Counted from the stretch's first letter, positions 32,982 through 63,935 are shown. The stretch: 64,000 bases of DNA from Escherichia coli (GCF_048403405.1 NZ_CP183135.1); one strand, 5' to 3'. Numbers and translations are program-made. Notes: generated by a model not told the origin, from the letters alone.

Positions 32982-33722
32982 ATGAACAATGTCATTCCCC
33001 TGCAGAATTCACCAGAACGCGTCTCCCTGTTACCCATTGCGCCGGGGGTGGATTTTGCAACAGCGCTCTCCCTGAGAAGAATGGCCACTTCCACGGGGGC
33101 CACACCGGCCTACCTGCTGGCCCCGGAAGTGAGTGCCCTTCTCTTCTATATGCCGGATCAGCGTCACCATATGCTGTTCGCCACCCTCTGGAATACCGGA
33201 ATGCGTATTGGCGAAGCCCGGATGCTGACGCCGGAATCATTTGACCTGAATGGAGTAAGACCGTTTGTGCGGATCCTGTCCGAAAAAGTGCGTGCGCGAC
33301 GCGGACGCCCGCCAAAAGATGAAGTGCGACTGGTGCCGCTGACAGATATAAGCTATGTCAGGCAGATGGAAAGCTGGATGATCACCACCCGGCCCCGTCG
33401 TCGTGAACCATTATGGGCCGTGACCGACGAAACCATGCGCAACTGGCTGAAGCAGGCTGTCAGACGGGCCGAAGCTGACGGGGTACACTTTTCGATTCCG
33501 GTCACACCACACACCTTCCGGCACAGCTATATCATGCACATGCTCTATCACCGCCAGCCCCGGAAAGTCATCCAGGCACTGGCTGGTCACAGGGATCCAC
33601 GTTCGATGGAGGTTTATACCAGAGTGTTTGCACTGGATATGGCTGCCACGCTGGCAGTGCCTTTCACAGGTGACGGGCGGGATGCTGCGGAGATCCTGCG
33701 TACACTGCCTCCCCTGAGGTGA
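32982..33722 (+). CDS. int: tyrosine site-specific recombinase (RepFIB-associated integrase/resolvase)
   Basis: C-terminal catalytic motifs ...[16 protein letters not shown]...[16 protein letters not shown]; paralogous to the F-type ResD at 58559. Confidence 0.8.
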
Positions 33723-33729
33723 CGGCATA

Positions 33730-34005
33730 CGCGCTTCCTTATATAAGCTGTGGTCAGCAGAACAGACATAACATAAGCTGGAGCATGTATATAAGCTGTA
33801 GTGAGTAAGTCATGTTTTATGAAGGGAGCAATGCCTCAGCATCAGGTTACGGGATCACTTACGTAAGGGACAGGCAGATGGCAGCTCAGCTACAGACAGC
33901 ACTGCAGGAAACAGAATATAAACTGCAGTGAGCAGACCACTCACTGCACCGGTTAATATAAGCTGTAGTCAGTAAAGGAGCGCTCTTCACTGACTACAGT
34001 TTATG
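33730..34005. repeat. RepFIB iteron set downstream of repA
   Basis: Repeated TATATAAGCTGTGGTCAG / ATATAAGCTGTAGTGAG / TAATATAAGCTGTAGTCAG units. Confidence 0.6.
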
Positions 34006-34006
34006 T

Positions 34007-34984
34007 TCAGCGGGATTTGAAGAGTTTTTCCAGGTCATCCAGCGTGATGCCCAGTTTCTCAAGCAGGGCAAGCTTCTCCGCCATCTCCGGACTGACTTTT
34101 TCCGCAGGTGAAGGTTGCAACGGATTTTCCTTACTCTCGTCATTCGGCGCTTTTAACCGGGGACGCCGGTAGTGAATACAGAAGAATTTTGTCCGCCCCC
34201 GCTGGATCTCCGTGTAATCAAGATATCCAATCTCGCGCAACTGCTCCATTGCCCGTCTGACCGTCTGGTTCTGGGAAAATACAGGAGACTTCAGATTGAG
34301 GCGTGCACGCAGCCGCGCCAGCGATATCGGTGCCGGATCCCGGGGCAGGCTCTCTATAAAGGTGTAGAGTGCCTGGGCGGACTCCCGTCGCTTCAGGGCA
34401 TTAATCGCCTTAAGCTGGAGAAGGACTTTTCTGTCAAACTGGTACAGTTCAAACAGGCGGGGATCGGCCTGTAACTGCACAATATCCCGCTCAGTATCGT
34501 AGTAAGCTGACTGTACCAGATGGGTGATATATTCCCGGGTGTGCTTCTCATCGGTACGGGAAAACGAAATCACGGTACCGGCAATGCGCTTCAGGGAAGG
34601 GCTGATGCGCTCACGCAGCCTGCGGGATGACTGGCTTGAAGGTATACCACACAGTTTTGCAAACTCAACAAAAGGCAGTTCAACTTTGTCACCAATCACG
34701 TTATGGCGGGCAAAGGAATGAATGATCCCCACCCAGGTCTTGAAATCATTATCCATATCCAGGCGGGGGCCGGTGATCTCAACCTTATCGAATCCCTCAG
34801 CACGGGCCAGGGAAAGACGTGTCAGCTCTTCCGTGGCATCAGTACGTGACAGTGTATTTTTTTTACTGTTCTTCAGTGATTTAAGGGTCGGTACAAAAAC
34901 GCCCAGACGCATCAGCGCCACAGGTTGTACGGTGTTGTTATTGTTTGGTGTCAGTGTCACCAGCTCACCGGAGGACTTATCCAC
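34007..34984 (-). CDS. repA: replication initiation protein RepA of the RepFIB replicon
   Basis: 325-aa [33 protein letters not shown]... recognised as RepFIB RepA and flanked on both sides by iterons. Confidence 0.85.
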
Positions 34985-35049
34985 CTCGCCGAACAGTTTT
35001 TTGATGTCTGAATTTTCGTTTTCCAGAAAGCCTCCAGCCTGTGGACAGT

Positions 35050-35250
35050 AAAAGAATAAACAGAAAATCGTGTGTCAGAACTCCGCTAACTGACTGAAGA
35101 AAAACCTGCAGCCTGTATTTAACAACTGAGTCTGGCATACTGACCATAGTTTATGTCATTAACTTACTTCAGTATATGGATTACTGAATACAGCTTATCA
35201 TTAGCATGTTACAGTTTATCAGTAACATGCCACAGCTTATGTGATCGTGG
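35050..35250. repeat. RepFIB iteron set upstream of repA (origin/operator region)
   Basis: Repeated ATACAGCTTAT / TTACAGTTTATCAG / CCACAGCTTATGTG units. Confidence 0.5.
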
Positions 35251-60842: not shown

Positions 60843-60844
60843 TC

Positions 60845-61100
60845 TGAGGGTTATCTGTCACAGATTTGAGGGTGGTTCGTCACATTTATTCTGACCTACT
60901 GAGGGTAATTTGTCACAGTTTTGCTGTTTCCTTCAGCCTGCATGGATTTTCTCATACTTTTTGAACTGTAATTTTTAAGGAAGCCAAATTTGAGGGCAGT
61001 TTGTCACAGTTGATTTCCTTCTCTTTCCCTTCGTCATGTGACCTGATATCGGGGGTTAGTTCGTCATCATTGATGAGGGTTGATTATCACAGTTTATTAC
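60845..61100. repeat. incC iterons of RepFIA
   Basis: Five direct repeats with core TGAGGG-n-TTTGTCACAG / TCGTCAC downstream of repE. Confidence 0.6.
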
Positions 61101-61420
61101 TCTGAATTGGCTATCCGCGTGTGTACCTCTACCTGGAGTTTTTCCCACGGTGGATATTTCTTCTTGCGCTGAGCGTAAGAGCTATCTGACAGAACAGTTC
61201 TTCTTTGCTTCCTCGCCAGTTCGCTCGCTATGCTCGGTTACACGGCTGCGGCGAGCGCTAGTGATAATAAGTGACTGAGGTATGTGCTCTTCTTATCTCC
61301 TTTTGTAGTGTTGCTCTTATTTTAAACAACTTTGCGGTTTTTTGATGACTTTGCGATTTTGTTGTTGCTTTGCAGTAAATTGCAAGATTTAATAAAAAAA
61401 CGCAAAGCAATGATTAAAGG

Positions 61421-62596
61421 ATGTTCAGAATGAAACTCATGGAAACACTTAACCAGTGCATAAACGCTGGTCATGAAATGACGAAGGCTATCGCCATTGC
61501 ACAGTTTAATGATGACAGCCCGGAAGCGAGGAAAATAACCCGGCGCTGGAGAATAGGTGAAGCAGCGGATTTAGTTGGGGTTTCTTCTCAGGCTATCAGA
61601 GATGCCGAGAAAGCAGGGCGACTACCGCACCCGGATATGGAAATTCGAGGACGGGTTGAGCAACGTGTTGGTTATACAATTGAACAAATTAATCATATGC
61701 GTGATGTGTTTGGTACGCGATTGCGACGTGCTGAAGACGTATTTCCACCGGTGATCGGGGTTGCTGCCCATAAAGGTGGCGTTTACAAAACCTCAGTTTC
61801 TGTTCATCTTGCTCAGGATCTGGCTCTGAAGGGGCTACGTGTTTTGCTCGTGGAAGGTAACGACCCCCAGGGAACAGCCTCAATGTATCACGGATGGGTA
61901 CCAGATCTTCATATTCATGCAGAAGACACTCTCCTGCCTTTCTATCTTGGGGAAAAGGACGATGTCACTTATGCAATAAAGCCCACTTGCTGGCCGGGGC
62001 TTGACATTATTCCTTCCTGTCTGGCTCTGCACCGTATTGAAACTGAGTTAATGGGCAAATTTGATGAAGGTAAACTGCCCACCGATCCACACCTGATGCT
62101 CCGACTGGCCATTGAAACTGTTGCTCATGACTATGATGTCATAGTTATTGACAGCGCGCCTAACCTGGGTATCGGCACGATTAATGTCGTATGTGCTGCT
62201 GATGTGCTGATTGTTCCCACGCCTGCTGAGTTGTTTGACTACACCTCCGCACTGCAGTTTTTCGATATGCTTCGTGATCTGCTCAAGAACGTTGATCTTA
62301 AAGGGTTCGAGCCTGATGTACGTATTTTGCTTACCAAATACAGCAATAGTAATGGCTCTCAGTCCCCGTGGATGGAGGAGCAAATTCGGGATGCCTGGGG
62401 AAGCATGGTTCTAAAAAATGTTGTACGTGAAACGGATGAAGTTGGTAAAGGTCAGATCCGGATGAGAACTGTTTTTGAACAGGCCATTGATCAACGCTCT
62501 TCAACTGGTGCCTGGAGAAATGCTCTTTCTATTTGGGAACCTGTCTGCAATGAAATTTTCGATCGTCTGATTAAACCACGCTGGGAGATTAGATAA
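61421..62596 (+). CDS. sopA: partition ATPase SopA (ParA family); the native start may be the in-frame ATG at 61430
   Basis: ...[28 protein letters not shown]...; deviant Walker [12 protein letters not shown]. Confidence 0.9.
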
Positions 62597-63566
62597 TGAA
62601 GCGTGCGCCTGTTATTCCAAAACATACGCTCAATACTCAACCGGTTGAAGATACTTCGTTATCGACACCAGCTGCCCCGATGGTGGATTCGTTAATTGCG
62701 CGCGTAGGAGTAATGGCTCGCGGTAATGCCATTACTTTGCCTGTATGTGGTCGGGATGTGAAGTTTACTCTTGAAGTGCTCCGGGGTGATAGTGTTGAGA
62801 AGACCTCTCGGGTATGGTCAGGTAATGAACGTGACCAGGAGCTGCTTACTGAGGACGCACTGGATGATCTCATCCCTTCTTTTCTACTGACTGGTCAACA
62901 GACACCGGCGTTCGGTCGAAGAGTATCTGGTGTCATAGAAATTGCCGATGGGAGTCGCCGTCGTAAAGCTGCTGCACTTACCGAAAGTGATTATCGTGTT
63001 CTGGTTGGCGAGCTGGATGATGAGCAGATGGCTGCATTATCCAGATTGGGTAACGATTATCGCCCAACAAGTGCTTATGAACGTGGTCAGCGTTATGCAA
63101 GCCGATTGCAGAATGAATTTGCTGGAAATATTTCTGCGCTGGCTGATGCGGAAAATATTTCACGTAAGATTATTACCCGCTGTATCAACACAGCCAAATT
63201 GCCTAAATCAGTTGTTGCTCTTTTTCTCACCCCGGTGAACTATCTGCCCGGTCAGGTGATGCACTTCAAAAAGCCTTTACAGATAAAGAGGAATTACTTA
63301 AGCAGCAGGCATCTAACCTTCATGAGCAGAAAAAAGCTGGGGTGATATTTGAAGCTGAAGAAGTTATCACTCTTTTAACTTCTGTGCTTAAAACGTCATC
63401 TGCATCAAGAACTAGTTTAAGCTCACGACATCAGTTTGCTCCTGGAGCGACAGTATTGTATAAGGGCGATAAAATGGTGCTTAACCTGGACAGGTCTCGT
63501 GTTCCAACTGAGTGTATAGAGAAAATTGAGGCCATTCTTAAGGAACTTGAAAAGCCAGCACCCTGA
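62596..63566 (+). pseudogene. sopB: partition protein SopB with -1 frameshift in a T run (T5 at 63221-63225, T6 expected)
   Basis: Track ORFs 62596..63345 and 63342..63566 together give SopB; one extra T restores ...[23 protein letters not shown]... Confidence 0.8.
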
Positions 63567-63654
63567 TGCGACCACGTTTTAGTCTACGTTTATCTGTCTT
63601 TACTTAATGTCCTTTGTTACAGGCCAGAAAGCATAACTGGCCTGAATATTCTCT

Positions 63655-63935
63655 CTGGGCCCACTGTTCCACTTGTATCGTCGGTCTGATTATTAGTCTG
63701 GGACCACGGTCCCACTCGTATCGTCGGTCTGATTATTAGTCTGGGACCATGGTCCCACTCGTATCGTCGGTCTGATTATTAGTCTGGGACCACGGTCCCA
63801 CTCGTATCGTCGGTCTGATTATTAGTCTGGGACCACGATCCCACTCGTGTTGTCGGTCTGATTATCGGTCTGGGATCACGGTCCCACTTGTATTGTCGAT
63901 CAGACTATCAGCGTGAGACTACGATTCCATCAATG
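63655..63935. repeat. sopC centromere: ~6.5 tandem 43-bp repeats
   Basis: Repeated unit GGGACCACGGTCCCACTCGTATCGTCGGTCTGATTATTAGTCT, each containing a 7-bp inverted repeat. Confidence 0.85.

Follow-up and report, generated by a model that had tools for sequence, protein, structure and literature searches.

A conserved F-like maintenance backbone of a multireplicon plasmid from Escherichia coli, with a probable homopolymer consensus error in sopB

The DNA considered here is a window of 64,000 nucleotides (nt) from Escherichia coli (GCF_048403405.1, NZ_CP183135.1), in which the segment between positions 32,982 and 63,935 carries a RepFIB replicon, a RepFIA replicon with its sopABC partition locus and, between the two, a vagCD toxin-antitoxin (TA) pair. 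The question raised by this locus concerns sopB, whose reading frame is broken in the sequence as written: is the partition gene of such a plasmid really damaged and, if so, how is the damage tolerated? A preliminary description of the sequence had answered that redundancy among replicons and maintenance systems would explain the tolerance. Our analysis points instead to an F-like multireplicon plasmid whose maintenance backbone is conserved, and in which long-read assembly has most likely introduced the sopB frameshift as a consensus error at a homopolymer. Judging from the sequence comparisons reported below, the real plasmid probably encodes an intact SopB, and therefore nothing would need to be tolerated.

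The apparent lesion noted in the preliminary description is indeed present in the sequence. Compared to plasmid F (NC_002483), sopB shows one substitution and the loss of one T, which shortens a run of six to five at nt 626 of the F gene (these states are indicated below as T6 and T5, and those of other runs accordingly). As written, the frame encodes 208 native residues followed by 41 out-of-frame ones and stops at position 63345, with the remaining codons intact in the +2 frame. An intact SopB of 323 amino acids (aa), with both the helix-turn-helix and the C-terminal dimerisation domain, is hence not encoded as written, and the match to the SoPB_HTH profile stops at profile position 57 of 75. 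In matching records, RefSeq labels the gene as frameshifted or reports a 249-aa product.

An indication of how this deletion arose comes from comparison with the plasmid of FDAARGOS_433 (NZ_CP023903.1), which aligns to window positions 26440-64000 in one alignment of 37.5 kb with 99.98% identity. Over this length, the two sequences differ by three substitutions and four insertions or deletions (indels), and every one of these indels is a 1-nt deletion in a homopolymer run of six to eight bases that breaks a coding sequence, namely sopB, gajA, the gene for a TonB-dependent haem-type receptor, and a hypothetical gene (Table 1), in spite of the fact that runs of at least five bases account for only 2.7% of the segment. 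In the FDAARGOS_433 plasmid, unlike in the window, both sopB (T6) and gajA (C6) are intact, and sopB is intact (T6) in plasmid pCREC572-2 as well. Likewise, clone-mates 605, 572, and CRE389 differ at homopolymer runs only, with zero single-nucleotide polymorphisms (SNPs) over the ~28-40 kb that they share, and the clone-mate plasmids are a few bases apart in length (169,206, 169,209, and 169,212).

The distribution of the T5 state in public sequences is also better accounted for by assembly error than by a segregating allele. Among complete-genome records containing this stretch, T5 is found in 23 of 1,591, and these are clustered by sequencing project, while the G5 state of the functionally unrelated TonB-dependent receptor gene is found in 17 of 1,106. 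Nonetheless, G5 and T5 occur together in eight records against 0.35 expected (P=2e-10), including two unrelated plasmids, a bovine one from New Zealand and one from wastewater, a co-occurrence that argues against a real sopB lesion. Furthermore, all four combinations of G5 or G6 with T5 or T6 are present within two groups of near-identical plasmids (G5/T5 in 605, G5/T6 in 571 and 774, and G6/T6 in 572; G6/T5 in 447, next to G5/T5 in 439 and 446). Among public contigs in which precisely this truncated protein is encoded, four of the ten longest have split neighbouring genes and many further homopolymer indels. The share of the truncated allele changes with contig size, from 1-5% in contigs shorter than 10 kb to 0.06-0.22% in those of 10-50 kb and 0.58% in those of 50-200 kb, and its depletion in the 10-50 kb class is highly significant (Fisher P=1.5e-38). 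A real allele should not vary with contig-length class, even though we only infer sequencing technology from such classes. Three short Logan contigs looked at as a proxy for Illumina data belong to a single SRA batch and are themselves noisy. Lastly, the locus shows no secondary decay: the sopB frame downstream of the deletion is undamaged, sopC shows no such decay, and sopA is 100% identical to that of F.

Several observations nevertheless weigh against an artefact and in favour of a real lesion, which we regard as unlikely. The T5 state recurs where the assembly shows no other fault over 3-29 kb (CUVET17-972, pOkiPb01693_1, and pCE0007a) and on at least three RepFIA haplotypes; it is shared by five CUVET records spanning the four years 2017-2021; it is also found in 14 contig blocks of 10-50 kb; and an order of nested mutations that requires no homoplasy can be drawn up for G5 and T5 in the Taiwanese group of ~169-kb plasmids. 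T5 could still be a real and recurrent mutation, possibly a reversible homopolymer switch, affecting the one partition locus annotated on large IncF plasmids of clinical origin, a proposition that we find doubtful. A literature search returned nothing on a frameshift in sopB, nor on the sequencing platforms of the CUVET, CRE, and pCREC isolates.

If the frameshift were real, the loss of SopB could be compensated, as the preliminary description had it, by the extra replicons together with post-segregational killing by ccdAB and vapBC, and by pemIK and hok located elsewhere on the plasmid. Several TA systems are in fact carried by the closest full plasmid, pKP389-2. The redundant systems, however, are replicons and killers of plasmid-free cells, and none of them is a partition system; reading of the whole pKP389-2 annotation revealed no second par locus. 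More importantly, saturating transposon mutagenesis with sequencing of the insertion sites (TraDIS) in pEC958, a plasmid of E. coli ST131 with formula F2:A1:B-, showed sopA and sopB, its sole partition system, to be required for stable maintenance in spite of its two replicons and of four TA systems present on the same molecule (hok/sok, ccdAB, pemIK, and vagDC) (Phan et al. 2015, PMC4398462). pEC958 resembles the plasmid studied here in being a multireplicon IncF plasmid with vagDC and a RepFIA module made of ccdAB, resD, repE, and sopABC, but combines RepFIA with RepFII, lacks RepFIB, and has no aerobactin or sit cargo at this position. Compensation by redundancy thus appears improbable, and the proposal that redundancy explains the tolerance of the lesion is not supported. 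A consensus error at the T run remains the reading that we prefer.

The preliminary description had itself raised the possibility that the window joins two different plasmids. Such a misassembly would have fused a RepFIB plasmid to a RepFIA plasmid at copies of an insertion sequence (IS); two IS1 copies do lie between the replicons, and homopolymer noise is evident. Hundreds of independent plasmids with complete sequences, including that of FDAARGOS_433, nonetheless contain the same junctions uninterrupted, and F itself carries both replicons in this order. In PLSDB, 485 records have at least 80% of positions 32982-57900 in one place and 235 have as much of positions 40000-63999, while 314 complete E. 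coli genomes have at least 80% of positions 56000-63999 in one place. Misassembly was therefore rejected, because an independent plasmid aligns over 37.5 kb in a single block and because these records concur, and we attach next to no probability to it.

The closest record, pCREC605-1 (NZ_CP183163.1), is a 169-kb plasmid from Taiwan that differs by one SNP from window positions 24254-64000. Its near-twin pKP389-2 (NZ_CP166761.1) matches positions 35998-64000 save for two homopolymer indels and the same SNP. In addition to blaNDM-5, pemIK, and hok genes, this plasmid has an IncFII replicon that is intact and a second IncFII repA that is truncated. MOB-suite typing in PLSDB assigns the records that are 100.0% identical over most of the segment to IncFIA + IncFIB + IncFII/FIC, in agreement with the multireplicon IncF plasmid originally proposed. 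A literature search for the FAB formula F1:A1:B49 retrieved nothing.

Identification of the parts was based on a listing of open reading frames (ORFs), Pfam scans, DNA and protein comparison with F, and scans for repeat patterns evaluated against chance expectation. The expected Pfam domains were found in all ten named proteins, and the elements named in the preliminary description were located at or near where it had placed them, with vagCD between the replicons and 25.1 kb from the RepFIB repA to repE. Order and orientation are the same in F, where int (+) and the RepFIB repA (-) lie at 35618-37620 and ccdA, ccdB, resD, repE, sopA, and sopB (all +) at 46340-51926. Given that the same two modules appear in the same order and orientation, the presence of two replicons on one segment corresponds to the classical architecture of F. 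DNA identity to F is 99.8% for window positions 59947-63640 and ~97% for the ccd-resD part. The stretch between the replicons, on the other hand, differs, for it consists here of IS1-bracketed sit, iuc, and iut genes, gajAB-like genes, and vapBC. The 25 kb between the two rep genes is accounted for by sitABCD and iucABCD-iutA, enclosed within inverted copies of IS1, and by the Gabija-like gene pair that comes next.

We envision that the RepFIB and RepFIA modules were inherited together as in F, and that the stretch between them was swapped for the sit/aerobactin cargo, the Gabija-like pair, and vapBC. Based on what is known of these families, replication would depend on iteron-controlled initiators of the Rep3 family, together with an IncFII replicon located on another part of the full plasmid; plasmid copies would be segregated by SopABC; plasmid-free segregants would be killed or arrested by CcdAB and VapBC; and multimers would be resolved by ResD. 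The systems counted as three in the preliminary description are all present, but three is too few for the maintenance-type genes, given that the segment also encodes ResD and, as a second tyrosine recombinase, Int. An Rfam scan of positions 32000-64000 for regulatory or antisense RNAs gave no match at the gathering threshold.

How the RepFIA module works is a separate issue. Its repE encodes a Rep3-family initiator with an incC array downstream, and the 19-bp RepFIA iteron pattern, over ori2 and incC, has five matches against 0.03 expected. The ori2, however, has two iterons where F has four, as a result of a 54-bp deletion between identical iterons. Upstream of ccdA, homology to F starts only 22 nt before the gene (positions 57474-58032 are unrelated to the oriV1/rfsF segment of F, in which pifC and a P-loop NTPase are the annotated genes just upstream of ccdA); the module therefore has no F-like counterpart of oriV1/rfsF, the segment with the rfsF target site of ResD. 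Accordingly, the F oriV1/rfsF segment (F 45700-46317) had no match anywhere in the window, although a divergent site could escape a comparison of this kind. The ccd promoter region upstream of ccdA is also unlike that of F, and a scan of this region with the promoter consensus found sites no more numerous than in shuffled sequence.

Taken together, the departures at ori2 and oriV1/rfsF raise the possibility that RepFIA is a relaxed, non-driving replicon kept for partition and ccd, while RepFIB, or IncFII elsewhere on the plasmid, or both, would drive replication. Such a view gains from the pEC958 work, in which genes for RepFIA replication were dispensable, whereas sopAB and ccdA were protected (PMC4398462), and also from the intact IncFII repA on pKP389-2 and on the FDAARGOS_433 plasmid. 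The RepFIA of pEC958, in contrast to the one studied here, is described as having oriV-1, two rfsF sites, and an ori2 with four iterons. Against this view, the identity of RepE to its F counterpart (100%) and that of incC and the rest of ori2 (99.8%) argue for continued constraint, and the two-iteron ori2 is found in roughly one fifth of 1,732 matching complete E. coli records (a share estimated from evenly spaced rows of the ranking), which makes it a stable allele rather than the product of fresh decay. We hold this interpretation to be plausible but do not favour it; being about the function of the module, it is compatible with a consensus error in sopB. The departures of ori2 and oriV1/rfsF, together with the pEC958 data, fit a RepFIA that would serve mainly for partition and ccd.

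In the SopABC partition system, of type Ia, SopA is a Walker-type ParA ATPase, and sopC is an array of 43-bp repeats with an inverted-repeat core; F sopC has twelve such repeats, compared to about six here, where the array ends inside the window. Of the two type II TA pairs, ccdAB has its antitoxin and toxin genes adjacent, and those of vapBC (VagCD) overlap by 4 nt (57243-57246).

In the RepFIB module, the RepA initiator gene is flanked by iterons on both sides, and the iteron pattern (~18-20 bp) has seven matches in the window against 0.02 expected; matching records annotate this protein as a RepB family initiator, WP_000361611.1. An inverted pair resembling these iterons, ACATAATCTGTAGTCAGT, was also seen at 52796-52846, just after iutA, with ~82% identity to the iteron pair at 33956-34006, and was perhaps left behind by another replicon of the RepFIB type. 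We considered whether a truncated rep gene of RepFIB lies beside it and rejected this, as the ORF at 52827-53132 has no similarity to RepA and there is no adjacent remnant of a rep gene.

As for the region between the replicons, the inverted IS1 pair encloses a 15.5-kb cargo (sitABCD, crcB, a major facilitator superfamily transporter, and iucABCD-iutA) and resembles a composite transposon. Aerobactin regions of the ColV type, such as that of pColV-K30, are flanked by IS1 and have the same arrangement, with iucABCD-iutA between inverted IS1 copies and adjoining a RepFIB-type replicon; in the window, by contrast, sitABCD lies within the pair too, and the IS1 copies differ in length, the second being shorter by 11 bp. 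A C8 run of iucB, at 46840, has its full length both in pCREC605-1 and in the window and is one base shorter in pKP389-2 and pCREC572-2, where iucB is frameshifted; clone-mates thus vary at this homopolymer as well. A Gabija defence system combines an ATPase/nuclease, GajA, with a UvrD-like helicase, GajB. In the Gabija-like pair of the window, the C5 state of gajA is common to clone-mates 605, 572, and CRE389, and absent in FDAARGOS_433, pMB5823_1, and CUVET17-972. Position 55417, within gajA, is a G in the window and an A in all six plasmids compared, and is the sole substitution with respect to pCREC605-1 over ~40 kb.

Table 1. Features of the window and their positions, counted from its first nucleotide. 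Identities are to the proteins of plasmid F unless otherwise indicated.
Feature	Positions	Strand	Evidence or description
Run in TonB-dependent haem-type receptor gene	28288-28293		G6 to G5 versus FDAARGOS_433; gene frameshifted
Run in hypothetical gene	32100-32107		A8 to A7 versus FDAARGOS_433; gene frameshifted
RepFIB module (int, repA, flanking iterons)	32719-35605		2,887 bp; 97.1% DNA identity to F 35356-38238
int, tyrosine recombinase adjoining RepFIB	32982-33722	+	Pfam Phage_integrase, E=1.3e-14; 99.2% aa identity
RepFIB iterons downstream of repA	33741-34006		Consensus ATATAAGCTGTAGTCAGT; one inverted copy at 33989-34006
repA, RepFIB initiator	34007-34984	-	325 aa; Pfam Rep3_N; 99.7% identity to F RepFIB RepA
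RepFIB iterons upstream of repA	35139-35200		Three copies
IS1A, left arm of inverted IS1 pair	36898-37665	-	Inverted-repeat match; annotation
sitABCD, iron/manganese ATP-binding cassette transporter	37966-41415	+	ORFs; annotation of matching records
iucABCD-iutA, aerobactin operon	44747-52718	+	ORFs; annotation of matching records
Second IS1, inverted	53189-53945	+	757 bp; inverted-repeat match; frameshifted according to annotation in related records
gajB-like	54184-55206	-	PADLOC GajB, 1.9e-47 on intact homologue
gajA-like	55191-56755	-	PADLOC GajA, 6.5e-102 on intact homologue; ORF split in the window
Run in gajA	55932-55937		C6 to C5 versus FDAARGOS_433; gene split
vapC, toxin of vagCD pair	56830-57246	-	PIN domain
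vapB, antitoxin of vagCD pair	57243-57473	-	MazE_antitoxin / AbrB-type domain
RepFIA module	58011-63935		ccdAB, resD, ori2, repE, incC, sopABC
ccdA	58033-58251	+	Pfam CcdA, 4.5e-27; 97.2% identity
ccdB	58253-58558	+	Pfam CcdB, 2.3e-32; 99.0% identity
resD, site-specific recombinase	58559-59365	+	Pfam Phage_integrase; 98.1% identity
ori2 iterons	59950-59990	+	Two 19-bp copies, at 59950 and 59972
repE, RepFIA initiator	60087-60842	+	Rep3_N and Rep3_C; 100% identity
incC iterons	60844-61097		Five iteron-like copies; region 99.8% identical to F
sopA, ParA-type ATPase	61430-62596	+	AAA_31 and CbiA domains; 100% identity
sopB, with 1-nt deletion	62596-63566	+	SoPB_HTH, truncated
Run in sopB	63221-63225		T6 to T5 versus FDAARGOS_433; gene frameshifted
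sopC centromere, 43-bp repeats	~63654-63935	+	About six repeats, three with a perfect TGGGACCnnGGTCCCA core

As a discovery, the arrangement described here carries little weight, as public plasmids with exactly the same one number in the hundreds; IncF backbones that combine several replicons, RepFIA and RepFIB among them, with ccdAB, vagCD, and sopABC are textbook knowledge, and there is nothing new in how these parts are arranged. Our results rather call for caution, in that the apparent pseudogenes of this sequence (sopB, gajA, the TonB-dependent receptor gene, and the hypothetical gene) all stem from single-base homopolymer deletions, and need to be confirmed in the reads before any biological meaning is ascribed to them. 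Were the sopB frameshift to prove real, it would follow that such large IncF plasmids, including carriers of NDM-5 and plasmids of companion animals, persist for years without a functional SopB, and that they do so by means of toxin-antitoxin killing, conjugation, and antibiotic selection. The lesion would then pose a modest question for the biology of this plasmid family, that of how low-copy resistance plasmids of 100-190 kb are kept stable without their only annotated partition protein.

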